From a candidate division WOR-3 bacterium (lineage in GTDB: Bacteria > Hydrothermota > UBA3073 > JACQXS01 > JAGMCI01), in assembly GCA_023129325.1 (NCBI GenBank), contig JAGMCI010000014.1, forward strand, positions 2,123 to 66,122: 64,000 nt of DNA. The letters are read 5' to 3'. The stretch's first letter is position 1. The number at the start of each line of letters is the position of its first letter. Position numbers and translations under genes: made by a program. Positions 5,678 through 57,461 of this stretch are shown here, piece by piece. The notes beneath the pieces are model-generated. The model was not told the origin of the DNA and searched no databases. It worked only from the letters and a program-made list of their open reading frames with translations.

Positions 5678-5749
5678 GCCGGCATAGCTCAGTGGTAGAG
5701 CAGCTGTTTTGTAAACAGCAGGTCATTGGTTCGAATCCGATTGCCGGCT
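5678..5749 (+). tRNA. tRNA-Thr (anticodon UGU)
   Basis: Hand-folded cloverleaf. Acceptor GCCGGCA/TGCCGGC, D arm GCTC..GAGC, anticodon stem GCTGT/ACAGC with loop TTTGTAA, T arm ATTGG TTCGAAT CCGAT. Confidence 0.9.
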
Positions 5750-5929
5750 ACTTTTGTCTATCAAGAGGAATTGATTTCCTCTGTTGGCTTTTACCAAGAT
5801 AATCACTAGAGCAAAGTAAAATCTATCTACCAGCTTGAAATTGATAAACGGTAATTGGCTATCAGCAAATAGGCACAGATTATTATGAAATGGTTATGTA
5901 TTGAGCTAATAACCAATTACCAGTTTTTT

Positions 5930-6012
5930 GGGCAGGTACCCAAGTGGACAACGGGGGCAGACTGTAAATCTGTTGGCGTATGCCTTCGAAGGTTCGAATC
6001 CTTCCCTGCCCA
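5930..6012 (+). tRNA. tRNA-Tyr (anticodon GUA), long variable arm
   Basis: Acceptor GGGCAGG/CCTGCCC, anticodon loop CTGTAAA, long variable arm TGGCGTATGCCTTC, T arm GAAGG TTCGAAT CCTTC. Confidence 0.9.
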
Positions 6013-6020
6013 AATTTTAT

Positions 6021-6183
6021 GCGGAGGTAACTCAATTGGTAGAGTATTCCGATTACAAGTGCGGGAGTAGCTCAGTTGGTAGAGCATTGGCCTTCCAAGC
6101 CGAGTGTCGCGGGTTCGAGCCCCGTCTCCCGCTGTTTTGCTTTCCAATCGGAATGGTTGCGGGTTCGAGTCCCGTCCTCCGCT
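6021..6183 (+). other. Split Gly-like tRNA whose halves flank the intact tRNA-Gly
   Basis: The 5' half (6021-6051) is GCGGAGG TA ACTC AATTGGTA GAGT A TTCCG. The 3' half (6149-6183) is CGGAA TGGTT GCGGG TTCGAGT CCCGT CCTCCGC T. Acceptor, D, anticodon and T stems all pair, and 97 nt lie between the two anticodon-stem strands. Confidence 0.5.
6061..6133 (+). tRNA. tRNA-Gly (anticodon UCC)
   Basis: Acceptor GCGGGAG/CTCCCGC with discriminator T, anticodon stem TTGGC/GCCGA, loop CTTCCAA, T arm GCGGG TTCGAGC CCCGT. Confidence 0.9.
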
Positions 6184-8053: not shown

Positions 8054-9249
8054 ATATTTTAATAATAACACCTAAATTTCCTTATCCTTTAGATGATGGA
8101 CACAAAATAAGATTATTTAATCTTATAAAACATACTTCTAAAAATCACCGTATTTCACTTATTTCACTTTGCGATTCTCCTGTAGGGGCGATTCATGAAT
8201 CGCCCCTACAAAAATACTGTGAAGTCATTGAACTTGTTAAAGTAAACAAATATAGTATGAAAAGATTTGTAAAACTTGCCCCGGCTTTATTCTCTAATAC
8301 TCCAATTTCAGCAAAATTCCTTTTCTTTCCCAAAATGGCAGAAAAAATTAAAAACTTGCTTCAAGTAAGGGCGAGGTCACCTCGCTCCTACTCTCTTGTT
8401 CAAATTGAGCATTCATATATGGGGCTTTATCTTGATGTCATTAAAGAGTTTAATGTTCGTAAAATACTTACTGTCCATAATCTTGAATTTTTAAGATTTC
8501 CAAGAATGTTTAAAGCATCAAGACCTGGTGGACGAAAACTTGCCTTTTTCATTGATTCAACAAGAATGTGTTACTGGGAACCAGAATTAGCCAAGAAATT
8601 TGACCACATAATTACGGTATCCGAGAGAGATAAAGAAACATTATCTGCCATAGAACCAGAATTAAATATATCAGTAATTCCAAATGGCGTATCTCTTGAA
8701 TATTTTTCTCCTTCAGTAATTCCGCCGGAACCTAATTCACTACTCTGGGTTGGTTCTTTACTTTATGAAGCAAATAAAGATGCAGTAATTTACTTTATAA
8801 ATTCAATTTTACCATTAATAAACAAAGAAATACCAGATGTAAAATTACACATAGTTGGAAAAATTACTCCTAAATTTGAAAATAAACTAAAGAAATACAA
8901 AAATGTAATAGTAGAAGGTTATGTATCTGATGTAAGACCTTATATTGAGCGATGTGAAGTTTTTATAGTTCCATTAAGAGCAGGTGGTGGCACAAGACTT
9001 AAAATCCTTGAAGCAATGGCTATGGAAAAACCTGTAGTTTCAACCTCTATTGGCTGTGAAGGCATAGATGTCGTCCATGGCAAAAACATTCTTATTGCAG
9101 ATACTACAAAAGATTTTGTCAAAGAGACTGTGCAACTTTTGCAAAACAAAGAAGTAAATGAAAAAATTAAAAAAAGTGCCCGAAAATCTGTTGAACAGAA
9201 ATATAATTGGAAAAAAATAGCCAAGCAATTAGGAACAATTTATTCATAA
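8050..9249 (+). CDS. Glycosyltransferase, GT4-like, carrying two in-frame palindromic insertions
   Basis: PLRAGGGTRLKILEAMAMEKPVVST block. The odd peptides SPVGAIHESPLQ and VRARSPRSYS are encoded by palindromes. Confidence 0.8.
   Translation: MNILIITPKFPYPLDDGHKIRLFNLIKHTSKNHRISLISLCDSPVGAIHESPLQKYCEVIELVKVNKYSMKRFVKLAPALFSNTPISAKFLFFPKMAEKIKNLLQVRARSPRSYSLVQIEHSYMGLYLDVIKEFNVRKILTVHNLEFLRFPRMFKASRPGGRKLAFFIDSTRMCYWEPELAKKFDHIITVSERDKETLSAIEPELNISVIPNGVSLEYFSPSVIPPEPNSLLWVGSLLYEANKDAVIYFINSILPLINKEIPDVKLHIVGKITPKFENKLKKYKNVIVEGYVSDVRPYIERCEVFIVPLRAGGGTRLKILEAMAMEKPVVSTSIGCEGIDVVHGKNILIADTTKDFVKETVQLLQNKEVNEKIKKSARKSVEQKYNWKKIAKQLGTIYS
8181..8210. repeat. Perfect 30-nt palindrome in frame within a CDS
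   Basis: TGTAGGGGCGATTCA/TGAATCGCCCCTACA. It is 10 codons long and encodes PVGAIHESPL. A degenerate relative lies at 8364-8392. Confidence 0.85.
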
Positions 9250-12008: not shown

Positions 12009-13499
12009 ATGGACAACTTTCTTGAACCCAGAGGGAGTCTTACCCAGCGTGCTATCCGCAGTGGAGCTTGGGTGTTTGCACTACAAATTACTAATCGCTT
12101 ATTTATGTTTGTCCGTACAATTATTCTGGCACGACTTCTGGCACCAAACGACTTTGGACTATTTGGAATTACCCTATTGGTGATAGCCGCATTAGAGGTT
12201 TTCTCTCAGACAGGGTTTAAGAGTGCTTTGATTCAAAAAAAGGAAAACACCAACGAGTACCTGGATACTGCTTGGACTGTTTCAGCTCTTAGAGGCATTA
12301 TTTTATTTGCCATATTGTTTTTCACAGCACCACTCGTCGCACTCTTTTTTAAGGTTCCGGAAGCAAAACTCATTGTCAGGATAGTTGGAGTTTTACTCTT
12401 GTTAGATGGCTTTGCAAATATCGGCATAGTTTACTTCAAAAAAGAATTGGAGTTTAATAAACAATTTATTTATCAATTAAGTGGAATCCTGGCAGATGTG
12501 GGAGTGGCTATCACTCTGGCTTTTATCTTAAGAAGCGTCTGGGCATTGGTTTGGGGATTGCTTGCTGGTGGAGTTGTGAGATGTATTGTTTCATATTTTA
12601 TTCACCCATATAGACCTCATATCAAACTTGAAATGGGCAAAGCTAAAGAATTGTTTACTTTCGGCAAATGGCTTTTGGGTGGCAGCATAGTGACTTTTTT
12701 AGCTACTCAGGGAGATGATGGTTTTCTTGGCAAAGTCCTGGGGGTAACGGCACTTGGTTTTTACCAGTTAGCTTTTCGTTTTGCATCTCTTCCGGGCTCA
12801 GAAATTGGTGTAATATCAAGAGTGGCATTTCCAACTTACTCAAAGCTACAGGACGATATTCCTAAACTGAGAAACACTTATTTAAAAGTATTAAAATTTG
12901 TTACTTTCTTTGCCATACCTCTTGCAGGTGGAATATTCATACTTGGTCCAGAATTTACCAGAATCTTCTTGGGAGAAAAGTGGTTGCCTATGGTTCCAGC
13001 ATTAAAGATACTGGCTATTACAATGATGATTAAAACTACCGTTGATACCAGTGGTGCTTTGTTTAACGGCATAGGAAGACCAGATATAACATTTAAAATG
13101 GTTCTTGTTAGAGTGATAATTCTTGCTGCTATCATATATCCATTAACTATATTATATGGAATTGCAGGCACCGCCCTATCTGTCCTTTTAGGTATTTGTC
13201 TCAGCATCCCCGTGTGGCTTTTAGGAACTTTCAAAGAAATCAAGGTTAAAATAAATGACTATCTCTCAATACTCTGGCCCCCTTTGGTGGGCACGGTTAT
13301 AATGTCTGCCATTATATCTGCTCTCAAATTATTACTTGGGCCATTCCAATTAATTGCATTTCTTATCTCTACATTTGCTGGTATCGTAACTTACTTTGGC
13401 TTTATTTTCCTGGCTCAAAGGTTTTCAAGATATGCTATATTTAAAGACTTAAGATTTATCCTTGCTTCATTAGGGATAGAAAACAGAATAAAAACATGA
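12009..13499 (+). CDS. wzx: Wzx-type polysaccharide flippase (MOP superfamily)
   Basis: 496 aa and highly hydrophobic throughout. The N-terminal region and overall layout are typical of polysaccharide biosynthesis protein/Wzx. Confidence 0.75.
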   Translation: MDNFLEPRGSLTQRAIRSGAWVFALQITNRLFMFVRTIILARLLAPNDFGLFGITLLVIAALEVFSQTGFKSALIQKKENTNEYLDTAWTVSALRGIILFAILFFTAPLVALFFKVPEAKLIVRIVGVLLLLDGFANIGIVYFKKELEFNKQFIYQLSGILADVGVAITLAFILRSVWALVWGLLAGGVVRCIVSYFIHPYRPHIKLEMGKAKELFTFGKWLLGGSIVTFLATQGDDGFLGKVLGVTALGFYQLAFRFASLPGSEIGVISRVAFPTYSKLQDDIPKLRNTYLKVLKFVTFFAIPLAGGIFILGPEFTRIFLGEKWLPMVPALKILAITMMIKTTVDTSGALFNGIGRPDITFKMVLVRVIILAAIIYPLTILYGIAGTALSVLLGICLSIPVWLLGTFKEIKVKINDYLSILWPPLVGTVIMSAIISALKLLLGPFQLIAFLISTFAGIVTYFGFIFLAQRFSRYAIFKDLRFILASLGIENRIKT

Positions 13500-14497
13500 A
13501 AGAGGCAATTAACTTCCCAATACATATATTACCAATAAGAAAGCGAATTTTGAGAAAATGTTTTCTAACAACGATTTTTCCTTTAATCCACCCGAAGAAA
13601 ATGAAAAGGTTAAAAAGGTCATTGCTGAATTGTAGAATAGCCATAAAAGCCACGTCTGACTTTGAGCGAAATTTATATACTCGCCTACAATATGGTGATT
13701 ACTGGGTTAAGTATGAACTAATTAAAGTATTTGGAGAAATGGGATGTATTGTTACAGACGAATATCCGAATATTGTTATCCATTTGTTTGGCAGGCAAAC
13801 CAAATTACCTAAAACTACTTATAACCTCATCTGGATATACAGTCATCCAGATGAGGTTACTCCAAAGTTATTAAGACAATATGATAAGATATTTTGTTTA
13901 TCATCTTCATTTATCAACAAAATCAATCAGATGGGTTTTGAAGCAAAATTGATGCTTGGAGCAACAGTCAAGAAACCTATCGTAAGTGATATAAAGTATG
14001 ATATTGTATTTGTAGGTAATGCCCGTCCAGAATTACCTTACGGACGAAAAATTATTCAAGATGTTGGAGAAACTGCTTATAATTTTAAGGTATGGGGATA
14101 TGGATGGAAGAACATATTGCCCAAAAAATATTACGGAGGAGCATATTTTGATAATCAGAGGCTTAATGAACTATACGCTTCCTCTTTGATTACACTAAAC
14201 GACCATTTTGAAGACATGGCAAATGAGGGATTTGTAGCAGTGAGAATTTTTGACATCTTAGCCAGTGGTGGGTTTTGTATTTCGGATAAAAATTCTGGAA
14301 TTAAAGAAATCTTTGGAGACACTGTTCCACAGTATAAGTCTGCAGAGCATTTGAGAAAACTCATTGATTTTTATATTAACAATCCCGACGAACGGTTAGA
14401 ACTGATGAAAAAGGGCCAAAAAATAGCTCTATCTCATCCCTGGCAAGAAAGGGCAAAGCAGTTCTTGGGGGACTTAATAAATACTAAAAATGAATGA
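13496..14497 (+). CDS. CgeB-family (Glyco_trans_1_2-like) glycosyltransferase
   Basis: C-terminal signature VAVRIFDILASGGFCISDKNSGIKEIFG...YKSAEHLRKLIDFYINNPDERLELMKKGQ. The true start may be an internal Met. Confidence 0.65.
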   Translation: MKEAINFPIHILPIRKRILRKCFLTTIFPLIHPKKMKRLKRSLLNCRIAIKATSDFERNLYTRLQYGDYWVKYELIKVFGEMGCIVTDEYPNIVIHLFGRQTKLPKTTYNLIWIYSHPDEVTPKLLRQYDKIFCLSSSFINKINQMGFEAKLMLGATVKKPIVSDIKYDIVFVGNARPELPYGRKIIQDVGETAYNFKVWGYGWKNILPKKYYGGAYFDNQRLNELYASSLITLNDHFEDMANEGFVAVRIFDILASGGFCISDKNSGIKEIFGDTVPQYKSAEHLRKLIDFYINNPDERLELMKKGQKIALSHPWQERAKQFLGDLINTKNE

Positions 14498-19928: not shown

Positions 19929-20083
19929 AACCACAGAGAGCACAGGAATAACAAAGAGAACACAGAGTAATTCAAATTCTTATATTAACAGGGATTTTAA
20001 GAGATTCATTTTTTATCTTTGTTTTCTTACCCAGCACATAATTTATGTGCTGGGTGGCTATTTTTCTCTGTGTCCTCCGTAGC
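19929..20083. repeat. CACAGAG-type inverted element enclosing a hairpin
   Basis: AACCACAGAGAGCACAGG..AACACAGAG (19929-19967) faces CTCTGTGTCCTCCGTAGC (20066-20083). An 11-bp-stem hairpin lies at 20030-20054. Confidence 0.6.
20030..20054 (+). terminator. Possible intrinsic terminator
   Basis: CCCAGCACATA ATT TATGTGCTGGG followed by TGGCTATTTTT. It lies downstream of the GT4 gene that ends at 19827. Confidence 0.45.
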
Positions 20084-20128: not shown

Positions 20129-20902
20129 ATGATTGCCATATTTAAAGAAATTTATAAATACAGAGAATTGCTTTTAACCCTTGCTTTAAGAGATGTAAAA
20201 TCAAGATATAAACAGTCGGTACTTGGTATAACTTGGGCTTTATTTGTGCCTCTTATAGCTATGCTGGTGTTTACATTTGTTTTCTCAAAATTCGTTAAAG
20301 TTGATACCGGTGGAATACCTTATCCTATTTTTGCTTATTGTGGTATCCTCCCGTGGACATTCTTTGCGGCTTCACTTAATACTTCAATAAATTCACTTGT
20401 TGCAAATGGTGGACTTGTAACTAAAATTTACTTTCCAAGAGAAGTATTTCCACTTGCTTCTATTGCTGCAAGTTTTGTTGATTTCTGTATTGCAACTCTT
20501 GTATTATTAGGATTAATGCTCTTTTATCATATTCATTTCCATCTGACAATTCTTTTGGTAATACCTATATTATTGCTTCAAATTATGCTAACAGCTGGTT
20601 TAGGTTTTATATTTTCAATGGCAAACTTATTCTTTAGAGATATTAGATATTTATTTCAGGTAATTATTCCTTTATGGATGTTTGCTACTCCAGTAGTATA
20701 TCCAATACCAGAAAAATTTAGATGGCTTTATATCATAAATCCAATGGCACCTATTATTTCATCTTACAGGTCTTTAATTATTGAGGGAAGTTTACCTGAT
20801 ATGACTACATTTAGCATATCTATTTTAATTTCTTTAACAATATTTATTATAGGAGCATTATGGTTTCATCGCGCTGAATATCTATTTGCAGAAAATATAT
20901 AA
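20129..20902 (+). CDS. wzm: ABC-2 type polysaccharide exporter permease
   Basis: YRELLLTLALRDVKSRYKQSVLGITWAL N-terminal signature and six hydrophobic segments. Confidence 0.85.
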   Translation: MIAIFKEIYKYRELLLTLALRDVKSRYKQSVLGITWALFVPLIAMLVFTFVFSKFVKVDTGGIPYPIFAYCGILPWTFFAASLNTSINSLVANGGLVTKIYFPREVFPLASIAASFVDFCIATLVLLGLMLFYHIHFHLTILLVIPILLLQIMLTAGLGFIFSMANLFFRDIRYLFQVIIPLWMFATPVVYPIPEKFRWLYIINPMAPIISSYRSLIIEGSLPDMTTFSISILISLTIFIIGALWFHRAEYLFAENI

Positions 20903-20956
20903 AAGATAGGGTACAGGGGGTAGCGTATAGGGTGTAGAGAATGATGTGGAGGAACG

Positions 20957-21310
20957 ATGAAAAGTTATAAAGAATTGATAGCATATCAAAAAGGGTATCA
21001 ATTGTGTCTGAAAGTTTATAAGACAACAACAAATTACCCAAAGCAAGAGATTTATGGATTGGTATCGCAGATGCGAAGAGCGGCGGTATCCATACCCTCA
21101 AATATAGCTGAGGGATATAGGAGAAAAACACGAAAAGCATATACCCAATTTCTTAGAATTGCTTTGGGTTCATGTAGCGAATTAGAAACTCAGATTTCAT
21201 TATCTAAGGATTTGGGATTTATAGGGGCTAAGGATTACAGGGTACTATATGAGTTACAAGTTGAAGTTACCAAGTTATTAATTAAATTAATAGCTTCTTT
21301 AGAAAAATGA
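20957..21310 (+). CDS. Four-helix-bundle protein (23S rRNA intervening-sequence protein / Avd-like family)
   Basis: YQKGYQLCLKVYKTTTNYPKQEIYGLVSQMRRAAVSIPSNIAEGY...FLRIALGSCSELETQ is the family signature. Confidence 0.85.
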   Translation: MKSYKELIAYQKGYQLCLKVYKTTTNYPKQEIYGLVSQMRRAAVSIPSNIAEGYRRKTRKAYTQFLRIALGSCSELETQISLSKDLGFIGAKDYRVLYELQVEVTKLLIKLIASLEK

Positions 21311-21385
21311 CCCTACACCCGGAATTTATCCCGCACCAAGCGGAACCCTACACCCTGCACCCTTTACCCTATACCCTGATGTATT

Positions 21386-22633
21386 ATGGCAGTAATTGAA
21401 TTTAATCACATCTGGAAGAAATTCAAGAAAGGCGGAGGGGGTGCATCGCTCAGAGACCTCATAAGTAATATGATTTCCCGCCTACACCCGGAATTTATCC
21501 CGCATCAAGCGGGACCCTACACCCTACACCCTGATTCTATCTTCTGGGCATTAAAGGATGTATCATTTGAAGTAAATGAAGGCGAGGCGCTTGGTATAAT
21601 AGGACCAAATGGAGCTGGGAAGACAACAATCTTAAAACTTTTATCAGGCATAATGAGACCAACTAAAGGGAATATAAATATAAAAGGCAAATTATCAAGC
21701 TTAATTGAGTTAGGAGCTGGCTTTCATCCGGAGCTAACTGGAAGAGAAAACATATACTTAAATGGCCAAATTTTAGGGATGCACAGAGATGAAATAAAAC
21801 GCAAATTTGATTCAATAGTAGATTTTTCAGGCATAGAAGAATTCCTTGATATGCCAGTAAAGAGGTATTCCTCGGGAATGTATGTCCGTCTCGGCTTTGC
21901 CATAGCAATTCATGTAGATTTTGATGTCCTATTAGTAGACGAAGTCTTAGCCGTAGGCGACATCAATTTTCAAAAGAAATGCTTTACTAAAATGGGGGAA
22001 TTTCGGGAAAAAGGAATGACAATTGTACTAATCTCCCATTCTATGTCAAATATTTCAAGAACATGTAACCGAGCTATATTTTTAGACCGTGGAAAAGCTG
22101 AATTTAAAGGCGTTTCCGACAAAGCAATAGAGGCTTATTATAATAGTATAGATAAAAAGGCACAAGATATTATATCTACAAAGATATATAAAGTGGGAAC
22201 TGGAGAAGTTTCTATAAGTAATGTGAAAGTATTTCAAGAAAATAATAATATAAAAAGTAATGAAATTGAGTTTGGAAAAAATATTGTTATAGAAGCAAAT
22301 TATAAAATAAATAGTGAAAATATTCCTGACGATATTGAATTTAGGGTAGGAATATTAACTCTTGAAGGTTATGACTTTATGAAGTTAATTCATAGAGAAT
22401 ATAAACCCTCTCGAAATGGTCAGGTACAATTTATAATAAAATCTCCAAAATTATTTCCACGAACTTACAAAATAAATATAGCAGCCTGTCCTTTAGATAT
22501 GGATTATCATATGGGAGGCATTGGTAATGCAGCTACATTCACTATAAAAAAACCTGATAATAAAAAAATTAGTAAATTTGAATATGGGAATACATATTTA
22601 GTTTACTTTGACTATGAAAGTAAAGCTTTATGA
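21386..22633 (+). CDS. wzt: Polysaccharide ABC exporter ATPase with extra C-terminal domain
   Basis: Walker A GPNGAGKTT, signature YSSGMYVRLGF, Walker B VLLVDEVLAVGD, and about 150 further C-terminal residues. It carries the in-frame insertion LHPEFIPHQAGPYTLHP. Confidence 0.85.
   Translation: MAVIEFNHIWKKFKKGGGGASLRDLISNMISRLHPEFIPHQAGPYTLHPDSIFWALKDVSFEVNEGEALGIIGPNGAGKTTILKLLSGIMRPTKGNINIKGKLSSLIELGAGFHPELTGRENIYLNGQILGMHRDEIKRKFDSIVDFSGIEEFLDMPVKRYSSGMYVRLGFAIAIHVDFDVLLVDEVLAVGDINFQKKCFTKMGEFREKGMTIVLISHSMSNISRTCNRAIFLDRGKAEFKGVSDKAIEAYYNSIDKKAQDIISTKIYKVGTGEVSISNVKVFQENNNIKSNEIEFGKNIVIEANYKINSENIPDDIEFRVGILTLEGYDFMKLIHREYKPSRNGQVQFIIKSPKLFPRTYKINIAACPLDMDYHMGGIGNAATFTIKKPDNKKISKFEYGNTYLVYFDYESKAL
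21479..21535. repeat. Hairpin-plus-heptamer module in frame in wzt
   Basis: CTACACCCGGAATTTATCCCGCATCAAGCGGGACCCTACACCCTACACCCT. Related copies are at 21310-21379 (intergenic) and 34028-34080 (in a CDS). Confidence 0.8.
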
Positions 22634-28166: not shown

Positions 28167-28790
28167 ATACCTAAATGCCTAAAAGAAAGAATATTTGCTG
28201 AAAGACCAAAGACATAAGACTAAAGACTCAAGACTAAAGGAGATAAACCTGAAATTCTGTGGCTTGAATTTAAATTCTTGACTCTTTAAACCGCAGACTT
28301 GTCCCGATACGGAACGGGTCGGGAGGACATAGAGATAAAATCAATAATATTAACCGCAAATGGACGCAGATAGCCACAGATTAAACAAAGAAAAACTTTA
28401 TCACTGAAATACGGAATGACTGGAACACGGAGAATTCTTTAATTCACAAAAAGATTGTAACTCAAGGCTTTAGCCTTGATATCAACCCTAAAGAGTTAAG
28501 TTACAAATCTACCTGTCAGCAGACAGTTTTCTGTGTTCCCTTCTTTTTCCCGTGCTTTCGCGATAAAAAAATCTTTTGACTTGACAAAATACTTTTTAAT
28601 GATTATATTATAAAAAAGAAACTTTTTAGCTACAAAGGACACGGATGACAAAAAAATCTCAAAATTCAAATCGCAAATTTCAAACAAGCATCAATGTTCA
28701 AAATTCTAATGCCTAAAACTGTTTTGATTTTGGGATTTTGGATTTGTTTGGGATTTGGTACTTTGGATTTGGGATTTCCCTGTATCTGTG
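28158..28790. repeat. About 600 bp of non-coding mosaic made of heptamer arrays and hairpins
   Basis: Arrays include CCTAAAT (28158-28186), NAAGACN x5 (28201-28242), AAATNNC (about 28645-28680) and its inverse GGGATTT/TGGATTT (about 28722-28785). Hairpins include TCCCGA..TCGGGA (28302-28324). Confidence 0.7.
28581..28609 (+). promoter_or_regulatory. Sigma-70-like promoter
   Basis: TTGACA, a 17-nt spacer, then TATATT, about 200 nt upstream of the beta-propeller gene. Confidence 0.4.
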
Positions 28791-28808
28791 TCTAAAAAAG
28801 GGGGGATT

Positions 28809-30308
28809 ATGTATAAATTATTTTTTATGTTATGTTTCTTGCTTCCCATTTCTCACTTTTCACTTCTCACTTCTTCTTTCGCCGCCACCTGGGAAAAGAC
28901 TTTTGGAGGGACAGGTCAGGATGAGGGATGGTCTGTTGAGCAAACCACAGATGGTGGATTTATTATAGCTGGAATGACATCCTCATTTGGAGCAGGTGAA
29001 AGCGATGTATATTTGATAAAATTAGACAGTCTTGGTAATGAGGTATGGATGAAGACTTTTGGTGGAGACAGTGCAGATGAGGGACGATGTGTTAAACAAA
29101 CTCAAGATAGCGGATTTATCATAACCGGATATACAAAATCATACGGAGCAGGTGATAAGGATATATGGCTTATAAAAACAAAGAGTTCTGGTGATACCAG
29201 TTGGACAAAAACTTTTGGAAGTAATAAACCAGATGAGGGATGGTCTGTTGAGCAAACGACAGATGGTGGATTTATTGTAGCTGGAGCAACGCATTCATGG
29301 GGAGCAAAAGAGAGTGATGTGGTTCTGATAAAAACAAATAGTCTCGGTAACGATGTTTGGGGGGAAATTTTTGGGGGAGCCGATGATGATGAAGGACGCT
29401 GCGTTAGGCAAACGGCAGATAGTGGATTTATTGTAGTTGGGTATACAAAATCTTATGGGAGTGGGGATAAAAATGTATGGCTCATAAAAACAAAGAGTTC
29501 TGGCGATACCAGTTGGACAAGAATTTTTGGAGGAGGAAACCCGGATGAAGGAATGTCTGTTGAGCAAACGACAGACGGTGGATTTATTGTAGCTGGATAT
29601 ACAGAGTCGTATGGAGCAAGTGACAGGAATATATGGCTTATAAAAACAGATAATTCTGGCAATCCTGATTGGGATGAAACCCTTGGAGGAGAAGCCCCGG
29701 ATGAAGGAATGTCTGTTGAGCAAATCGCAGATGGTGGATTTATTGTAGCTGGAGCAACGCATTCATGGGGAGCAAAAGAGAGTGATGTGGTTCTGATAAA
29801 AACAAATAGTCTCGGTAACGATGTTTGGGGGGAAATTTTTGGGGGAGTTGATGATGATGAAGGACGCTGCGTTAGGCAAACGGCAGACGGTGGATTTATT
29901 ATAGTTGGGTATACAAAATCCTGTGGAGCAGGTTCCTCTGGTGTATATGTTATAAAAACAGATTCCCTTGGCAATGTTGGGGTTGAAGAAGCAATTTCTC
30001 AGTTACCAACTTATTATAGTTTATCCCAGAACTCACCAAATCCATTTAACAAAACTACAGTGATAAGCTTTCAGTGCCCAGTGACCAGTGGAAAAGAAAG
30101 AACCACCTTGAAGATTTATAACTTGAGTGGAAGACTGATTAAGACCTTATTCGATAAGACACTAACCACTAACCACTTGCCACTGACTACTACTGTCTCC
30201 TGGGATGGCAGAAATGAATCTGGCAAATTAGTAGCTAATGGAGTTTATTTTTATAAGCTAAATAGCACAAATTTCGCATCCACGAGAAAACTCATCGTCT
30301 TAAAATAG
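28809..30308 (+). CDS. Secreted seven-repeat (beta-propeller-type) protein with T9SS C-terminal sorting domain
   Basis: Start moved to the ATG at 28809, after AAGGGGGG. Signal peptide ends SSFA. Seven repeats of about 48 aa follow the pattern W.KTFGG...DEG.SV.QT.DGGFI..G.T.S.GAG..D..LIKT. The tail is PNPFNKTT...GVYFYKL...KLIVLK. Confidence 0.8.
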   Translation: MYKLFFMLCFLLPISHFSLLTSSFAATWEKTFGGTGQDEGWSVEQTTDGGFIIAGMTSSFGAGESDVYLIKLDSLGNEVWMKTFGGDSADEGRCVKQTQDSGFIITGYTKSYGAGDKDIWLIKTKSSGDTSWTKTFGSNKPDEGWSVEQTTDGGFIVAGATHSWGAKESDVVLIKTNSLGNDVWGEIFGGADDDEGRCVRQTADSGFIVVGYTKSYGSGDKNVWLIKTKSSGDTSWTRIFGGGNPDEGMSVEQTTDGGFIVAGYTESYGASDRNIWLIKTDNSGNPDWDETLGGEAPDEGMSVEQIADGGFIVAGATHSWGAKESDVVLIKTNSLGNDVWGEIFGGVDDDEGRCVRQTADGGFIIVGYTKSCGAGSSGVYVIKTDSLGNVGVEEAISQLPTYYSLSQNSPNPFNKTTVISFQCPVTSGKERTTLKIYNLSGRLIKTLFDKTLTTNHLPLTTTVSWDGRNESGKLVANGVYFYKLNSTNFASTRKLIVLK

Positions 30309-30534: not shown

Positions 30535-33500
30535 ATGAGAAAATCATTTTTTATCTTCCTTTTCACTGCTTACTGCTTACTACTTACTACTTACTCTTCT
30601 TTCGCCGATACCTGGACCCAAACTGACTGGAGTGGAGAAAGTGGACAATTATTCTATGAAGATACAACAAAGTATTGGCAAGGAAGCGGAATCGACGGAA
30701 TAGTAGATAGAGGGGTTTTGACTCTATATAAAGAAGGTATTTGGGATACAATATTTACAGTTCCAAATCAGACAAAGGTATATACTATTATTAATGGTCC
30801 CGACAGTATTCTTTTTTTGGGTTCGGGAGACAACACCTTAAAGAGCATCTACAGGTCTATAGACAATGGGAAAACATGGGCTCCTTTTATCTCTAATATG
30901 CTAAATATTGTGCCTACTCTTTTGATTGCTTTCTCTAATCTGTATATAGGAGGACGTTATTCAACAAATACTATTGCTCAGATTATCCGATTTCCTGATT
31001 TATCAAGCAGTTACGACTACTACCTTACAGTTCACGATATGTATACTTTCTATTCATTATGTAAATCATCCTCATATCTATTTGGAGCAGGTGGAGCACC
31101 AGAGGGAAGAATATATCGTTCAACAGATGAAGGAGTATCTTGGAATTGGTGTTTTACTTGCTTAGATGATAAAATATTTTCTTTACTTGCAACTAATGAT
31201 GGCACTGTATATGCAGGTACAGGAGATACCTATGGAAGAATATATAAATCTATAAATTATGGTAGTAATTGGACTGAAACAGGTGAGTTGCCAGGTGCAA
31301 AGTCTGTCTATAGTCTTACCCAAGGAGCTGATAGTGCAATATATGCTGGAACTGATACTGCTGGGATAGTGTATAAAACTACGGGTGAAGGAAACACCTG
31401 GATTTCTACTGGAAAACTTCAAGGAGCTACAAAAGTTTATTCTCTAATATGCGGGCCCAACGGTTATCTCTATGCAGGATGCAAATGTGAAGATGATAGT
31501 GCGCGTATATTTGCTTCTATTGATAATGGTGATAATTGGACAAATATAGGAATACTCCCTGGGGCTACTTCTGTTACCTGTCTTTTATTTACAAATAATA
31601 GCTCTTTACTTGCCGGAACAGATTATAATGGCGTCATATTTAAAGCTCCAAAATTTGATACATCTGGATATCTTGTATCTTCTATTTATAATATAGGAAC
31701 AGCTAATGGAAGTGTTGAATATGGGACTATATTATGGGATGCAACTGCTGATACACAAGATATTATTGTTAAAGTGAGAACATTTCAGGATACTGTGAGC
31801 TGGAGCGATACCACTGCCTGGGATAGCGATAGCTGTGTTCCAGTCGCAAATGGACAAGATATATCTGAAATACCTTCTGTAGATGATGGTGACCAATTTG
31901 TTCAGTATAGAGTTGAGCTTTCAACTCAAAGTCCGTTTGTAACTCCAATATTTGATGAAATATCAATAAATTATTCTTTAGATACTATTGCACCTGTGAT
32001 TGTCACGGCTGTCGCTTATGGTAACGAGGAATTAATTCCACCAGATTCAATAATCTCTCAAGACAGAGTAATAATTTCGTTTAGTGAGCAGGTAGATACA
32101 AGTCATGCACATATTAATGTATCCAATATTGACTCTATCTTGAGGTTAAGTAATAATCATTCCTGGCTTGATAATTCTGGAACTTTTCAATCTATTGTAT
32201 GGGAAGACTCAACTACTTTAAAAATTACTCTTGGTGAAGATATATGGTCTGGTATGGTTGCTTCAGGAGATACTATAACTCCTTTGCCTGATAGTATTAA
32301 AGATAAATGGGGAAATCCAGCTACATCTTATTGTGTTATTACTGGTTCTTTTGCTCCAAATATTGATTCTATAATTGTTTCTGATGGCTCTGATTCAATT
32401 GAATATATTGATAACGATGATTATGTTAGTTTTTATTTTTCAAAGCGCACAAATAAACCAAAAATTGATAAAAATAATATAAATTCCGTTCTTCAAATCC
32501 CTGAACATACCTGGCTTGATGGATTGGCTGAACTTAGAGGAGATTCCGCTATTTGGGATACATTTGGATTTACACTTACTTGTTCTTTAAAAATAGATAG
32601 TTTAAGACCTACAATTCAGATTGGTGACACGGTATTTCCTGATGGAATTACAATATGGGATAAATTTTTGAGAGACTCGGTTGCAAATCCAGCTATAATT
32701 GGAGGTACTTTTGGAGATTATGGACCTGTTCCGGAATCTGCCATCGCTTATGAATTTGGTCCCCCTGAATCAGGAATTGGAGATGGTGATATAGTATGGA
32801 TTTTCTTTAATGAACTTATAGATACTAATATAAATTGGGATTCTGTAGACCTTGATACTATATTAACCCCACAAAAAAATGGTATCCAGCACACCTGGCA
32901 TCCTGATAGTTTATCATATGATGTTCAGCCCATAGATATGCAAGACCCACAAGGAATACCATATACTGTGCTTTATATATCTTTTTTCTATCCAGGAGTA
33001 GAAGAGTTTTTTCCCTCAATTACTTCTTATAAACTATTTCAAAACTTTCCAAACCCATTTTCTAAAGGCACACTTATTAAATATCAAATATCAGATATCA
33101 GATATCAGATATCAGAGGTCAGAGGTCCCGATATGAAATCGGGATCCTCATTTTTGTATTCAAATCAAAGACTTGAACAAAAATGGGATAAGAAGACAGA
33201 AGTAAGACCTAAATACCAATTACCAATTACCAATTACCAGATTCTCCCCATTGCTATTGGAGATACGCTTTATCCGGATTCAAGCACAATTCAGGATTTT
33301 AAGGGACATAAATGTATAAAGCCAGTTGTTCTTCAGGGCGCATTCAAAAAACAGGGTAAAGGGCAAAGGGTGAAGGGTAAAGTCAAAACTCTTAACCCCG
33401 TCTGCCAAAGCGAAGCGGCGGGCAGGTCACAACCCACAGCTACTCCGGTTTCCTTAAGAATTTATGACATTGCAGGGCGCTTGGTTCGAACACTAATAAA

Positions 33501-33642
33501 TGAGTCTAAAGTAGCTGGCAGTTACGAAATTTACTGGGACGGAAAAGATTCAGAAGGCAGAAAAGTAAAGAGTGGTATTTACTTTTATAAACTAACTGTA
33601 GGAGAACATACTTTCATAAGAAAAGCAATTTGTATAAGATAA
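30535..33642 (+). CDS. Large secreted BNR/Asp-box repeat protein with an interrupted T9SS C-terminal sorting domain
   Basis: Signal peptide ends SSFA. Asp-box-like motifs are SIDNGKTW, STDEGVSW, SINYGSNW, TGEGNTW and SIDNGDNW. The tail FQNFPNPFSKGTLIKYQI ... PVSLRIYDIAGRLV...GIYFYKL is split by about 360 nt. Confidence 0.8.
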   Translation: MRKSFFIFLFTAYCLLLTTYSSFADTWTQTDWSGESGQLFYEDTTKYWQGSGIDGIVDRGVLTLYKEGIWDTIFTVPNQTKVYTIINGPDSILFLGSGDNTLKSIYRSIDNGKTWAPFISNMLNIVPTLLIAFSNLYIGGRYSTNTIAQIIRFPDLSSSYDYYLTVHDMYTFYSLCKSSSYLFGAGGAPEGRIYRSTDEGVSWNWCFTCLDDKIFSLLATNDGTVYAGTGDTYGRIYKSINYGSNWTETGELPGAKSVYSLTQGADSAIYAGTDTAGIVYKTTGEGNTWISTGKLQGATKVYSLICGPNGYLYAGCKCEDDSARIFASIDNGDNWTNIGILPGATSVTCLLFTNNSSLLAGTDYNGVIFKAPKFDTSGYLVSSIYNIGTANGSVEYGTILWDATADTQDIIVKVRTFQDTVSWSDTTAWDSDSCVPVANGQDISEIPSVDDGDQFVQYRVELSTQSPFVTPIFDEISINYSLDTIAPVIVTAVAYGNEELIPPDSIISQDRVIISFSEQVDTSHAHINVSNIDSILRLSNNHSWLDNSGTFQSIVWEDSTTLKITLGEDIWSGMVASGDTITPLPDSIKDKWGNPATSYCVITGSFAPNIDSIIVSDGSDSIEYIDNDDYVSFYFSKRTNKPKIDKNNINSVLQIPEHTWLDGLAELRGDSAIWDTFGFTLTCSLKIDSLRPTIQIGDTVFPDGITIWDKFLRDSVANPAIIGGTFGDYGPVPESAIAYEFGPPESGIGDGDIVWIFFNELIDTNINWDSVDLDTILTPQKNGIQHTWHPDSLSYDVQPIDMQDPQGIPYTVLYISFFYPGVEEFFPSITSYKLFQNFPNPFSKGTLIKYQISDIRYQISEVRGPDMKSGSSFLYSNQRLEQKWDKKTEVRPKYQLPITNYQILPIAIGDTLYPDSSTIQDFKGHKCIKPVVLQGAFKKQGKGQRVKGKVKTLNPVCQSEAAGRSQPTATPVSLRIYDIAGRLVRTLINESKVAGSYEIYWDGKDSEGRKVKSGIYFYKLTVGEHTFIRKAICIR
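33081..33243. repeat. Composite module in frame: heptamer arrays, hairpin, heptamer array
   Basis: ATATCAA then (ATATCAG)x4 and (AGGTCAG)x2 at 33081-33127. Hairpin TCCCGAT ATGAA ATCGGGA at 33126-33144. (TACCAAT)x3 at 33214-33234. Confidence 0.85.
33352..33426. repeat. Composite module in frame: GGGYRAA heptamers plus GC-rich hairpin
   Basis: GGGTAAA GGGCAAA GGGTGAA GGGTAAA, followed by CCCCGTCTGCCAAAGCGAAGCGGCGGGCAGG. Confidence 0.8.
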
Positions 33643-33648
33643 TTCTAA

Positions 33649-33806
33649 AACCACAGAGAACACAGATTTGAATAAGATAAATAATCCCGCACTTATGTGT
33701 AAGTGCGGGACTGTGTAAATCTATTTTATCTGTGAGAATCTGCGTGCTAATGTTTTTGAATTTTGAAAATGGAATTTGTTTGGGATTTGGTCCGTCAGCT
33801 AACGGA
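33649..33806. repeat. Intergenic mosaic: CACAGAG inverted element, 11-bp-stem hairpin, TTTTGAA-type arrays, TCCGT hairpin
   Basis: AACCACAGAGAACACAGAT (33649-33667). Hairpin TCCCGCACTTA TGTG TAAGTGCGGGA (33685-33710). CTGTGTA..TCTGTGA..TCTGCGT (33711-33750). TCCGTCAGCTAACGGA (33791-33806). Confidence 0.7.
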
Positions 33807-33833
33807 TTGATATTTAACTTTTGATTTTGCTAA

Positions 33834-34211
33834 ATGTGGGTTAATATTCGTGATTCAAGGATTGTTAAGAAGATAGAAGATGGATTCAAGAAAAGGAAGG
33901 AACTGTATAAAAAACTAAAAGTAAAAGCTCTGGATATAAAATACTCTACAACTCCTATTAAAAACAAAAAATTACTTTATAACTTATATCTTCTTAAAAA
34001 AAGACTATATCAGATAGATATGGTTTTCCCCTTTACCCTGCGCCCGGAATTTATCCCGCACCAGGCGGGACCCTGCACCTTTTTTTTAAACAAGCTTTGT
34101 AGAAAAATTGGAAAATTCTTATTAAAAGATTACATTGACAAACAAAAGAATTTTAACGAAGCAGTAATTGAGGCAATTGAAGAATTGACAAGAGAAATAA
34201 ATGAGGGTTGA
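33834..34211 (+). CDS. Hypothetical protein carrying an in-frame hairpin module
   Basis: ORF track. It overlaps the next GT4 gene by 11 nt. The peptide TLRPEFIPHQAGPCTFF is encoded by the module at 34028-34080. Confidence 0.45.
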   Translation: MWVNIRDSRIVKKIEDGFKKRKELYKKLKVKALDIKYSTTPIKNKKLLYNLYLLKKRLYQIDMVFPFTLRPEFIPHQAGPCTFFLNKLCRKIGKFLLKDYIDKQKNFNEAVIEAIEELTREINEG

Positions 34212-35320: not shown

Positions 35321-35470
35321 ATAGGAAAAATGGAAAAAGTGGGGAAAAGGGAAAGAAAGATATAAAGATATAAAGAGATAATTGTATAATCTTTATATTT
35401 TCAAAGAAGTTAAAAGGCATTTCCCATTTTCCCATCCGCCTGAGGCGGATTCCCCTTTTCCCTTATTTAC
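35321..35470. repeat. MITE-like imperfect palindrome built from GGAAAAN arrays, with an internal hairpin
   Basis: The left arm is AGGAAAAATGGAAAAAGTGGGGAAAAGGGAAAG...ATATAAAGAT. The right arm is ATCTTTATAT...CATTTCCCATTTTCCC [ATCCGCCTGAGGCGGAT] TCCCCTTTTCCCTT. Confidence 0.6.
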
Positions 35471-39538: not shown

Positions 39539-40666
39539 ATGAAACAGAAATTGCCAAAAGTTTCTATAATAATTCTTGATTGGAATGGTGGGAAAGATAT
39601 AATAGAGTGTTTAAAATCAATTAAAGGGATAAATTACACCAATTATGAATTAATCGTTGTTGATAATGCTTCTTTTGATAACTCTGTTAATCTCATAAGG
39701 GAGAAATTTCCAAATATAAGAATAATTCAAAACAAAGAGAATCTTGGTTTTGCAGGAGGAATGAATACAGGAATAGTGCAAAGTGTAAAGTGCAAAGTGC
39801 AAAGTGATTATGTGTTACTGCTTAACCAAGATACAATAGTAGGGAAGAATTTTTTAAAGGAGCTTGTAAAAGTAGCTGAATCAGACCCAAAAATTGGGAT
39901 TGTTGGTCCAAAAATATATTACTGGAAGGAGTCAAGGAGTCAAGGGGTCAAGCTATCGAGCTATCGGGCTATCAGTAACCAATTACCAATTACCAATTAC
40001 CAATTACCAAATATTATTTGGTCTTGCGGAACAAAATTTGCAACTGGAAGTATATTTAAAATGGAAGTTCCTTACATAGCACCTGTCCCTATTGGATGTG
40101 GCAAGAAAGATAGAAGTGAGAAGCAAGAAGCAAGAGGTGAGAAAAGGGAACTCCCCAATTCTCAATCCTCAATCCTCAATTCTGATAAGGAAGTAGACGC
40201 GATTACTGGCTGTTGTATGCTTATAAAATTTGAAGTAATTGATAAAATTGGACTCTTGGATGAGAGATTTTTTATAATTCACGAAGATGATGATTATTGT
40301 GTAAGGGCAAGAAAGGCAGGATATAAAGTATGCGTGGCACCTAAATCAATAATCTGGCATAAAGTATCAACCAGTCTACTTCCCACTTCCTACTTCCCAC
40401 TTCCCACTTCCAAATCATATGAGGCAAATCCTATGACAATTTATTACGGATACAGAAATTGGTTAATAGTGTTAAGAAAACATTTTGGGAGCTTTTTTAT
40501 TAGAGTCTTTTTTACCTATATAGTTAAAGTTTTTCCGCTATCCTTTATAAATCTGATCAGGGAGCGTAAACTATCCTTGAGAATTACCCTCTCATATTTA
40601 TACATTATTCTTGATACCTTTCTGTGGAGAATGCCAAAAAGGTTCTTAAAACTTGACAAATCATAA
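39539..40666 (+). CDS. Glycosyltransferase, GT2, with four in-frame repeat insertions
   Basis: VSIIILDWNG...YELIVVDNASFDNS and LLLNQDT (DxD-type) motifs, plus ITGCCMLIKFEVIDKIGLLDERFFIIHEDDDYCVRARKAGYKV. Confidence 0.85.
   Translation: MKQKLPKVSIIILDWNGGKDIIECLKSIKGINYTNYELIVVDNASFDNSVNLIREKFPNIRIIQNKENLGFAGGMNTGIVQSVKCKVQSDYVLLLNQDTIVGKNFLKELVKVAESDPKIGIVGPKIYYWKESRSQGVKLSSYRAISNQLPITNYQLPNIIWSCGTKFATGSIFKMEVPYIAPVPIGCGKKDRSEKQEARGEKRELPNSQSSILNSDKEVDAITGCCMLIKFEVIDKIGLLDERFFIIHEDDDYCVRARKAGYKVCVAPKSIIWHKVSTSLLPTSYFPLPTSKSYEANPMTIYYGYRNWLIVLRKHFGSFFIRVFFTYIVKVFPLSFINLIRERKLSLRITLSYLYIILDTFLWRMPKRFLKLDKS
39775..39809. repeat. Heptamer array in frame
   Basis: AGTGCAA AGTGTAA AGTGCAA AGTGCAA AGTGATT, encoding VQSVKCKVQSD. 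Confidence 0.85.
39928..40012. repeat. Three consecutive arrays in frame (8-mers, 8-mers, 7-mers)
   Basis: (GGAGTCAA)x3 at 39928-39951, (GCTATCGR)x3 at 39952-39975, and (ACCAATT)x4 at 39978-40005 plus ACCAAAT. Together they encode SRSQGVKLSSYRAISNQLPITNYQLP. Confidence 0.9.
40112..40181. repeat. Two heptamer arrays in frame, joined by a short palindrome
   Basis: AGAAGTG AGAAGCA AGAAGCA AGAGGTG AGAAAAG, then GGGAACTCCCC, then CCCAATT CTCAATC CTCAATC CTCAATT. Confidence 0.85.
40377..40411. repeat. Heptamer array in frame, inverse orientation of the AGAAGTG array
   Basis: TACTTCC CACTTCC TACTTCC CACTTCC CACTTCC, which is the reverse complement of GGAAGTR. It encodes LLPTSYFPLPTS. Confidence 0.85.
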
Positions 40667-56667: not shown

Positions 56668-57461
56668 AAATTAAAATATGCATAACAGTAGATATGGAAC
56701 AAGATATCCCTCCAATTATGCAAACATATAAAGGAATAGAAATTGGTATTCCCTATCTTTTAAATATCTTCAAGACTTATAAAGTAAAAGCAACATTCTT
56801 TGCAACAGGTAATATCGCAGATAAATATCCAAAAATAATTTCTGAAATAATAAATAGAGGTCACGAGATTGGCTGTCATGGAATGTGGCATGAAGATTTA
56901 AGCGCATCGAATTACCAAGATAAGTCAAACAGAATTAGTGAAGCGACTCGGATAATAGAAGATATTGTGGGAGAAAAAATTGTGAGCTTCAGAGCTCCTT
57001 ATCATTTGATAAATGCTGAATTGCTTTCTGTTTTGGAGTCACACGGTTATCTTATAGAAGCATCTAAATTTCAGAAGTCAGAAGTCAGAAGTCAGAAGTC
57101 AGATATGCCTTACTATCCAAATAATATGAAGATATTGAGAGTGCCATTATCTCTTCCTCCCGCTTCTTACTTCCCGCTTCTTACTTCCCGCTTCTTACTT
57201 TCTTTATACAATATGTCCTGGATTCTTGGATATAAATATGCAGTTTTCAAACAAAGAAGAGAAAAAATAAAAGTTATAATTCTTGGCTCTCATTCATGGG
57301 AATTCGTGGACATTCCTGAATCTCCTGAGAATTATAGGAAAATATATGGTAAACACTCACGGGATAAATTAAATGAATTATTTAAATATTTGAATCCGTC
57401 AGCTGACGGAAAGAATGTAGAATTTATAACTATAAAAGAACTGCTTAAATATGATTTCTAA
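56664..57461 (+). CDS. Polysaccharide deacetylase-family protein with three in-frame repeat insertions
   Basis: KATFFATGNIADKYP...GHEIGCHGMWHE and SFRAPY motifs. Confidence 0.8.
   Translation: MKIKICITVDMEQDIPPIMQTYKGIEIGIPYLLNIFKTYKVKATFFATGNIADKYPKIISEIINRGHEIGCHGMWHEDLSASNYQDKSNRISEATRIIEDIVGEKIVSFRAPYHLINAELLSVLESHGYLIEASKFQKSEVRSQKSDMPYYPNNMKILRVPLSLPPASYFPLLTSRFLLSLYNMSWILGYKYAVFKQRREKIKVIILGSHSWEFVDIPESPENYRKIYGKHSRDKLNELFKYLNPSADGKNVEFITIKELLKYDF
57071..57105. repeat. Perfect heptamer tandem array in frame
   Basis: (TCAGAAG)x4 at 57071-57098 followed by TCAGATA, encoding QKSEVRSQKSD. Confidence 0.9.
57151..57202. repeat. 14-nt tandem array in frame, roughly inverse to the TCAGAAG array
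   Basis: (CCCGCTTCTTACTT)x3 at 57159-57200, encoding PASYFPLLTSRFLL. Confidence 0.9.
57395..57410. repeat. Perfect 16-nt palindrome in frame
   Basis: TCCGTCAGCTGACGGA, encoding PSADG. Relatives are at 33791-33806 and 59554-59569. Confidence 0.8.

Follow-up and report, generated by a model that had tools for sequence, protein, structure and literature searches.

Background

The closest described counterparts of the element reported here, a hairpin module present in three copies in a stretch of 64,000 nucleotides (hereafter the window, meaning that whole 64-kb stretch) of contig JAGMCI010000014.1 from a bacterium of candidate division WOR-3 (phylum Caldifarciminota in current NCBI taxonomy), are short dispersed repeats of bacteria. 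Elhai et al. are said to have described in 2008 the small dispersed repeats (SDRs) of cyanobacteria as hairpin elements of 21-27 nucleotides (nt) that encode no protein and lie nested within heptamer repeats, the short tandemly repeated repetitive (STRR) sequences. Frequent in-frame coding copies are not known to be a feature of SDRs. The SDRs are known only from the Nostocaceae lineage (PMC5861425). Sequences of the repetitive extragenic palindromic (REP) type often lie near gene ends, and intragenic cases are documented (Di Nocera et al. 2013, PMC3733652). As for dispersed heptamers, direct repeats of TAACTGA have been described from Beggiatoaceae, Cyanobacteria and Bacteroidetes (MacGregor 2015, PMC4679880), and the heptamers GGGAATC and GGGGAYT as G-quadruplex-forming (Rehm et al. 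2015, PMC4692102). REPs, SDRs and the Rickettsia palindromic elements (RPEs) are known systems, yet their origin, their enzymes and their effects on proteins are poorly understood.

The module of the window is probably a miniature palindromic dispersed repeat of the REP-like or RPE-like kind, and presumably mobile. The interest of the case is carried by a 25-nt core that crosses phyla and by the unusual in-frame repeat load of this genome: the core is identical in two phyla, and the outer helix around it covaries in one of them and is absent in the other.

Results

Three copies of the module in the window

The window is one long plus-strand locus of polysaccharide biosynthesis. Its Wzt shows 100% identity to a WOR-3 protein at NCBI, and the contig corresponds to scaffold_42 of ENA ERZ23498859. 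The composites that carry the module and the reading frames that host them are the following.

21311-21380, plus strand: composite copy 1, intergenic, an ACCCTNN array with the hairpin module nested in it; core 21321-21345, 28-nt in-phase unit 21321-21348
21386-22633, plus strand: wzt, ATP-binding cassette (ABC) ATPase with a Wzt_C domain, host of copy 2
21479-21537, plus strand: composite copy 2, in frame in wzt (residues ~32-51); core 21490-21514
33834-34211, plus strand: open reading frame (ORF) of 125 residues, host of copy 3; no homologue, coding status unsupported
34026-34080, plus strand: composite copy 3, in the homologue-less ORF 33834-34211; core 34046-34070, within about four NNNACCC-type units and followed by a T8 run

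We searched the window with the 32-mer CCCGGAATTTATCCCGCAYCARGCGGRACCCT, allowing up to three mismatches and taking 100 dinucleotide-preserving shuffles as the control, and obtained exactly three matches, all on the plus strand (21318-21349 with one mismatch, 21487-21518 and 34043-34074), and none in the 100 shuffles. This is the number given by the first-pass annotation of this DNA, which had described a hairpin module in three copies embedded in heptamers. It had also assigned the stem TCCCGC/GCGGGA to all three, which is true of copies 2 and 3; copy 1 reads GCGGAA instead of GCGGGA, a G-to-A change that breaks one stem pair. Copy 1 does begin, as had been stated, at the stop codon of a four-helix-bundle gene (the TGA of ORF 20957-21310), and copy 2 does lie in frame in wzt shortly before the Walker A motif, encoding Wzt residues 33-50, LHPEFIPHQAGPYTLHPD, some 25 residues upstream of that motif. 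The two are direct repeats, again as proposed: they share 94% identity across 52 nt, and a distance of 169 nt separates their starts. Copy 3 had been described as in frame and translated. It is in frame in ORF 33834-34211, but this ORF has no Pfam match and among 1.84 billion representative proteins matches only itself; translation of copy 3 is unsupported because its host has no homologue, and the ORF may be a false gene call.

The sequence ACCCTNNACCCT is found seven times in the window against 0.14 expected, six of these at copies 1 and 2, and Tandem Repeats Finder places arrays at 21345-21377 and 21514-21532. The GC content of the composites is 56-64%, compared with 33% window-wide. In the core, copies 2 and 3 differ only synonymously (CAT CAA against CAC CAG), and the sole change that breaks the stem and is non-synonymous sits in the untranslated copy 1, an observation that with so few differences is an anecdote.

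Anatomy of the unit

The unit common to all copies comprises 25 nt, namely GGAATTTA followed by the TCCCGC/GCGGGA hairpin. Excision of 28 nt, that is, four heptamers (GGAATTTATCCCGCnnnnnGCGGrACCC), restores a seamless NNNACCC array in all three copies, with six, about four and about four units, respectively, and because the array is left seamless we regard the module as nested in phase within it. An equivalent description is that of a 25-nt unit flanked by a duplication of CCC (25 nt plus CCC giving the 28 nt of four heptamers). The first-pass annotation had thus recognised the hairpin in its heptamers and had overlooked both the small size of the conserved unit and its register with the array. 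A duplication of 3-4 nt (CCC/ACCC) is possible at the flanks of the WOR-3 copies and is indistinguishable from the heptamer register.

Both array ends are alike in copies 1 and 2 (CCTACACCC ... ACCCTGAT), copy 2 having two heptamer units fewer, and those of copy 3 are different. Since copies 1 and 2 share their array ends and differ by two units, the whole composite appears to have been duplicated locally, and local duplication or gene conversion of one composite is the most likely origin of this pair. The repeated entity in WOR-3 is accordingly the whole composite of array, module and array, 57-70 nt long.

In the WOR-3 copies the inner hairpin of 6 base pairs (bp) is the sole consistent fold, and the folding energy of segments of 76-81 nt was unremarkable relative to shuffles. 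Terminal inverted repeats of the insertion sequence type, which with target-site duplications define miniature inverted-repeat transposable elements, were looked for on the module and not found. An intrinsic terminator was considered and set aside, as no terminator-like call was obtained on any of the three window copies; the T8 run of copy 3 begins 10 nt past the stem. A known RNA family was likewise set aside: neither the window nor 18 loci gave an Rfam match at the gathering threshold, and the surroundings of copies 1 and 2 gave none even at E <=10. As read from its sequence, the module has no stop codon in five of its six reading frames.

Relatives of the module in other genomes

A search with the pattern CCGGAATTTATCCCGCNNNNNGCGG, which specifies 20 bases, returned 30 loci in the set of species-representative genomes and 21 Joint Genome Institute (JGI) metagenome contigs; five matches were excluded as chance or coding (L001, L004, L006, L009 and L040). 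Chitinophagaceae and further Bacteroidota, among them Ferruginibacter, Taibaiella, Flavipsychrobacter and Draconibacterium, account for around 25 of the 30 genome loci. A genome has up to six of these loci, and at least six copies are present in single Ferruginibacter and Taibaiella genomes. In total, at least 47 distinct copies were found on other contigs, from Chitinophagaceae, other Bacteroidota and metagenomes. The dispersed family suspected by the first-pass annotation, which had named as the fact to count against it that the three copies should prove the only ones, therefore extends well beyond the window.

Outside WOR-3 the module takes the form CCCC-GGAATTTA-TCCCGC(C)-loop-(G)GCGGGA-GGGG, which is a hairpin whose 5' side carries an 8-nt bulge. 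In a subfamily of high GC content (55-59%; L034, L036, L043 and L047), CCGACC/GGTCGG takes the place of the C and G runs. These four come from metagenome contigs; their outer stem is GGCCGACC/GGTCGG, a T-rich tail is present, and GTAG precedes some of the copies.

We aligned the 47 distinct non-WOR-3 copies and used the alignment both for a test of covariation and to build a covariance model, R1. The outer helix covaries, CG pairs being exchanged for GC, AU or UA: 42 cells of the alignment show double changes compared with 21 in shuffles, none of 500 shuffles reached 42, and 86% of the cells are paired against 53-59% when the partner strand is slid. Run over the 64-kb window with filters off, R1 retrieved exactly the three known copies and nothing else, in local matches that cover model positions 9-33, that is, the bulge and the inner hairpin (27.4 bits for copy 1, 30.6 for copy 2 and 32.7 for copy 3, with E values of 2e-5 to 3e-4, the latter for copy 1). 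Because the window copies match positions 9-33, the cross-phylum unit is one of 25 nt. The WOR-3 copies are flanked by CCC in direct orientation, the other copies by inverted runs of C and G. The junction pattern typical of WOR-3, GGAATTTATCCCGCNNNNNGCGGRACCC, had no match in the JGI metagenomes, and hence no close relative with a WOR-3 flank was found.

The non-WOR-3 copies are mostly intergenic, often no more than 20 nt from a stop codon or 18-40 nt ahead of a start codon, and their neighbours are diverse, unrelated housekeeping genes. A tie to one neighbouring gene family was therefore rejected, with the exception of a Terminase_2-like cluster in Chitinophagaceae, in which copies lie in the C-terminal tails of the genes in the PEFIP or the PRNLSR frame. 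The genes in question (L020 1777-3036, L007, L010 and L027) have an N-terminal Terminase_2 domain (small terminase) and long low-complexity C-terminal tails that are composed of copies of the module and of further small GC hairpins. L005 and L021 have such a gene too, with the module about 25 nt upstream of it. No match to the module was found in viral contigs, phage records or plasmid records, and a literature search on the 14-mers, the G-rich tail and the peptides returned no paper.

In-frame copies inside proteins

At least five non-WOR-3 copies lie in frame in unrelated proteins supported by Pfam, four of them read as PEFIPQKAGG and one as PPAVGGINSG.

L042: 1104-residue DUF5107/TPR protein, SPEFIPQKAGGDLGV
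L054: lycopene cyclase, PPEFIPQKAGGGGGG
L045: protein with a HATPase_c domain, PPEFIPQKAGGGRS
L046: glyoxalase/methylmalonyl-CoA epimerase, module on the opposite strand, read as PPAVGGINSG; insertion of ~19 residues relative to PDB 3oa4
L038: PQQ_2 protein, N-terminal copy, ahead of the Pfam match (residues 152-341)

The true start codon of L038 is uncertain because its copy lies upstream of the Pfam match. The peptide PEFIP(H/Q)(Q/K)AG(P/G) is in this way common to Wzt, the DUF5107/TPR protein, the lycopene cyclase, the HATPase_c protein and the PQQ_2 protein. Among the cases supported by a domain, four of five (Wzt, L042, L054 and L045) use the PEFIP frame and L046 uses the frame of the opposite strand; a rough estimate of this frame preference gives p ~0.03, the copies not being independent.

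The copy in wzt

The peptide is present in none of the 59 top homologues of Wzt, which have at this place an unrelated, variable linker of 11-13 residues, compared with 19 residues in the Wzt of the window, and the Aquifex Wzt (8dku) is 18 residues shorter ahead of the first conserved strand. This alignment supports the view, already put forward in the first-pass annotation, that the module is foreign to wzt and not part of the gene. In the AlphaFold model of Wzt (mean predicted local distance difference test score, pLDDT, 86.7) residues 37-48 (FIPHQAGPYTLH) are the sole segment with pLDDT below 50, located between the helix 22-33 and the strand 52-64, and therefore the insert is, as modelled, a tolerated surface loop.

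Arrays and hairpins across the window

The first-pass annotation did not notice that the module is one of many families of arrays and hairpins that fill the window, coding regions included. Some 33 short arrays of tandem units, with a period of 7, 8 or 14 nt, were found, the commonest length being 33 nt; 22 of the 33 lie inside ORFs and 11 in the intergenic part, which makes up 9.4% of the window. Under a strict criterion for period 7, nine arrays were obtained against none in shuffles. The ORFs that bear arrays are mostly glycosyltransferases, and the 22 arrays inside ORFs lie in frame in long ORFs supported by Pfam. The arrays range from 20900 to 60000 (for example 28842-28874, 30160-30192, 33081-33127, 33214-33239, 39775-40411, 57071-57103 and 57940-57966), with none in the first 16 kb of the window.

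The units of the arrays recur at different loci and in both orientations; examples are ACCAATT (33214, 39978), TCAGAAG (57071, 57940) and AAGGAGTC (39926, 45208, 58629). The presence of the same units at unrelated loci in both orientations argues that they were dispersed and did not arise locally. In a polysaccharide deacetylase ORF (57158-57200) the 14-nt unit TCCCGCTTCTTACT is found three times, and its reverse complement, GGGAAGTAAGAAGC, about twice in a GT1 ORF (52018-52044); as both are within ORFs, the same array is tolerated in coding DNA in both orientations.

The glycosyltransferase (GT2) gene at 39539-40666 contains seven arrays, of which, in a comparison with eleven orthologues, two are loop insertions (+22 and +18 residues) and two are replacements of near-equal length, one replaced segment directly preceding the conserved LLLNQD motif. 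L032 and L033, the two contigs that carry the closest homologues of Wzt and GT2, have a low density of arrays, 0.5-1.4 per 10 kb where the window has 6.2, and we conclude that those organisms do not share the array phenomenon. The GT2 homologues P0128 and P0129, which belong to other uncultured bacteria, have insertions of their own, of 10-20 residues, at a different site (alignment columns 34-52), and the 14 kb of L032 around P0128 are poor in arrays.

Perfect GC-rich hairpins number about 25 in the window compared with about 4 in shuffles, and they fall into families, some being nested in arrays or in one another; besides the module, nested hairpins are found at 35420-35470, 44979-45020 and 59544-59583. 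The first two are copies of the hairpin (A)TCCGCCTGAGGCGGA(T), each placed between short tandem repeats (TTTCCCA-type in one case, AATTGTA and GCAAATT in the other), and the one at 44979-45020 is in frame in the GT2 ORF 44824-45783, with an architecture like that of the module. The third belongs to the perfect palindromes of 13-14 bp, GTAGGGGCG...CGCCCCTAC, that lie inside glycosyltransferase ORFs (8181-8210, 52143-52174 and 59544-59583), and has a nested hairpin, ATCCGTCGGCTGACGGAT, that splits it. In these palindromes the GTAG/CTAC ends recall REP tags, and GTAGGG is the reverse complement motif of the ACCCTAC heptamer. The family TCCGTC(A/G)GCT(G/A)ACGGA is represented three times (57395-57410, 59553-59570 and 33787-33810), twice in ORFs and once between genes. 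Two other hairpins begin with TCCCG, as that of the module does: TCCCGCACTTATGTGTAAGTGCGGGA (33685-33710) is intergenic and terminator-like on the minus strand, and TCCCGATATGAAATCGGGA (33126-33144) lies in ORF 30535-33642, directly after an ATATCAG/AGGTCAG array.

Several further features of the window were recorded. A tandem repeat of 156 nt (52 residues), in about six copies that are 66-74% identical, occupies 28890-29970 in ORF 28755-30308, which ends in a type IX secretion system sorting domain (Por_Secre_tail); this is a repeat protein that has no relation to the short arrays. Long perfect palindromes have a 15-bp stem at 13822-13859, in ORF 13496-14497, and a 12-bp stem at 20029-20055, intergenic and upstream of wzm. 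Three tRNA genes (5678-6133) lie where genes switch from the minus to the plus strand and where the GC skew changes sign.

The four-helix-bundle cassette between wzm and wzt

The surroundings of copy 1 comprise three features upstream of the composite.

20129-20902, plus strand: wzm, ABC-2 permease
20906-20937, plus strand: G-rich heptamer array NNAGGGT of about four units, left cassette border, inverted counterpart of the ACCCTNN array 21345-21377
20957-21310, plus strand: four-helix-bundle gene, 23S_rRNA_IVP, PF05635 (E 3e-37, 127 bits), inserted between wzm and wzt

The first-pass annotation had placed the start of copy 1 correctly and had missed that this copy is part of inverted arrays flanking an inserted cassette. 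The gap between wzm and wzt is 3 nt on the homologous contig L033 and 483 nt in the window. The G-rich array at 20906-20937 and the C-rich array at 21345-21377 bracket the PF05635 gene with arms of 28-30 nt that are 77-82% complementary. In the minimum-free-energy fold predicted for the RNA of 20895-21392 (-130.4 kcal/mol, z = -4.05, none of 100 shuffles being as stable) the two arms are paired with each other and the ORF lies between them. Members of PF05635 occur in rRNA intervening sequences bounded by a stem, and the predicted pairing of the arms resembles such a stem.

A link between the module and four-helix-bundle genes elsewhere was examined with tblastn and rejected, no such gene being found in the sequence of any of the 30 genome-scan loci (at most 8 kb each, match included), the 21 metagenome loci lying outside this test. 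A reading of the gene as the Avd component of a diversity-generating retroelement was also discarded: there is no reverse transcriptase domain in the window ORFs and no pair of template and variable repeats, and bAvd scored 28.4 bits against a cut-off of 40.

Discussion

Recurrence of the core in unrelated contexts, nesting in arrays and conservation of one peptide in unrelated proteins are what lead us to regard the module as a dispersed palindromic repeat of its own. In the mechanism that we propose, the 8-nt single-stranded tag GGAATTTA and the GC hairpin of 6-7 bp (TCCCGC(C), a variable loop and (G)GCGGGA) would together form a recognition structure. A trans-acting enzyme encoded elsewhere in the genome, for which a single-strand-specific transposase (HUH/Y1, like the REP-associated tyrosine transposases, RAYTs) is the obvious candidate, would recognise tag and hairpin and copy the unit into C-run or heptamer targets. 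The preferred frame encodes the Pro/Gly-rich peptide PEFIP..AG; given the five open frames and this composition, copies with a length that is a multiple of three would survive where proteins have surface loops, as behind the N-terminal helix of Wzt, presumably as neutral passengers for the host.

A number of observations weigh against this reading. The 64-kb window encodes neither a transposase nor a recombinase nor a reverse transcriptase, and for that reason the mobilising enzyme is a conjecture. The consensus nnnnCCCCGGAATTTATCCCGCnAnnGGCGGGAGGGGG is devoid of the GTAG or CGTC end tag that defines the described REP super-families, GTAG being found ahead of the outer stem in a few copies only (L046 and L047). 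The outer helix conserved elsewhere is missing from the WOR-3 copies, which may be inert relics. Orthologous loci of Chitinophagaceae retain the module in place (L003/L019, L005/L021 and L020/L029), so that many copies are old or conserved and not recently mobile. Wzt and GT2 are each the sole member of their 90% identity cluster, and hence offer no comparison with an empty site in a close strain. Finally, an RNA that serves the host would explain the covariation of the outer helix just as well.

The strongest of the alternatives is that the bulged hairpin is a motif serving the host, be it as a binding site for a protein on RNA or single-stranded DNA, as a stabiliser of mRNA 3' ends, as a terminator or as a site of processing, with the GGAAUUUA bulge read by a conserved host protein and the coding copies accidental or secondary. 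Apart from the covarying helix, such a role would agree with the retention of the module at orthologous loci, with the many copies close after stop codons or shortly before start codons, and with the T-rich tail that follows the high-GC subfamily in the manner of an intrinsic terminator. Twenty positions are invariant because the search pattern fixed them, but positions beside the pattern, on which nothing was imposed, are also nearly invariant (44-46 of 47 copies) and this in at least two phyla. However, neither an Rfam family nor a terminator-like call supports such a function in the window copies, the neighbouring genes are unrelated housekeeping genes, at least five copies lie in the coding regions of unrelated proteins on either strand, and in WOR-3 the outer helix is absent and copy 1 has a broken inner pair as well. 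On balance we consider a host function an unlikely explanation.

A second alternative sees in the repeats a switch of surface polysaccharide, operated either by slippage of the perfect heptamer run ACCCTACACCCTACACCCT in wzt, in which a change of 7 nt would shift the frame, or by a deletion between copies 1 and 2, structurally possible and suggested already by the first-pass annotation, that would remove the wzt start and the first 31 codons. Repeat-driven phase variation of surface-polysaccharide loci is well established in other bacteria. The window is such a locus, its 22 arrays inside ORFs lie mostly in glycosyltransferases, a unit of 7 nt is not a multiple of three, and copies 1 and 2 are near-identical direct repeats at a short distance. 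Nevertheless, the arrays have just 3-5 units and many are imperfect, all the ORFs that bear them are intact in the assembly, no length variant of Wzt or GT2 is found in the protein collection, the recurrence of units at unrelated loci speaks for dispersal, and the module is also present in non-surface genes of other phyla, so that we consider a switch improbable. Equally improbable is the proposal that a mobile or processed four-helix-bundle cassette has its border in the composite, a cassette whose arrays would pair in the transcript or in single-stranded DNA for excision or RNase III processing, copy 2 being a spill-over duplication of the right border: the complementary arms, the stable fold, the insertion between wzm and wzt and the precedent of PF05635 in rRNA all suit it, but the pairing is a prediction only, neither copy 3 nor the 30 genome-scan loci have such a gene nearby, and it would account for the arrays at the wzm-wzt locus rather than for the 25-nt module and its occurrence across phyla.

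Returning to the dispersed palindromic repeat, we would tentatively extend it one step further. The hairpin tagged by GGAATTTA might represent an undescribed cross-phylum mobile family of ~25 nt with a dedicated single-stranded DNA enzyme, for which the heptamer arrays of WOR-3 would serve as landing pads, both together rewriting in frame the surface loops of dozens of proteins; in this full form we hold the idea to be possible, albeit doubtful. If true, the family would be among the smallest mobile elements, and would be a source of genome-wide and possibly ongoing variation of protein loops in genes for cell-envelope polysaccharides. The compact signature of the module can be searched, which permits a hunt for the enzyme by co-occurrence, the dating of insertions, and an assessment of whether the loops ride along neutrally or supply material on which protein evolution can work. 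On the practical side, ortholog alignments, domain boundaries and gene calls in WOR-3 genomes will be distorted by in-frame arrays and hairpins, of which one polysaccharide locus has some 20.

Comparison with known systems

By the description given in the Background, the SDRs within STRRs resemble the module in architecture, the module being likewise a hairpin nested in tandem heptamers.

The dispersed heptamers described elsewhere (PMC4679880, PMC4692102) resemble the arrays of the window in forming short 7-nt arrays with a preference for about four units, close to the ends of ORFs, and the antisense of the ACCCTNN array is a G3N4 repeat, as in the G-rich heptamers. They differ in being mainly intergenic and under-represented in coding DNA, whereas in the window two thirds (22/33) are in ORFs, and the window holds many different units that are mostly not G-rich.

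With the REP sequences of the REP/REPIN-RAYT system (REPINs being REP doublets forming hairpins; PMC3733652; Bertels and Rainey 2011, PMC3116915) the module shares the form of a GC-rich imperfect palindrome of 20-40 nt with a short conserved unpaired tag, the presence of many dispersed copies per genome, mostly intergenic and at most 20 nt from the 3' ends of ORFs, the compensatory changes in the stem and the occasional in-frame intragenic copies. In size and dispersal it falls within what is described for REPs, having a core of 25 nt, a bulged hairpin of ~37 nt outside WOR-3 and 47 distinct copies elsewhere. It departs from them in that its conserved unpaired element is the internal 8-nt bulge GGAATTTA, that the core is common to different phyla, and that the WOR-3 module is nested in heptamer arrays. 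Inverted pairs of the kind seen in REPINs or bacterial interspersed mosaic elements were not found, the window copies being all on the plus strand and the other loci having single copies or direct repeats.

The RPEs (Minnick 2024, PMC10969869) offer a parallel to what we observe inside proteins, a palindromic repeat in frame in unrelated genes that adds a conserved and tolerated peptide, and the module behaves as they do in both respects. It does not belong with them in size or family, since RPEs have ~100-150 bp and are restricted to Rickettsia, whereas the module is a unit of 25 nt in composites of 57-70 nt, bears no sequence similarity to them, and is hosted by free-living Bacteroidota and by WOR-3.

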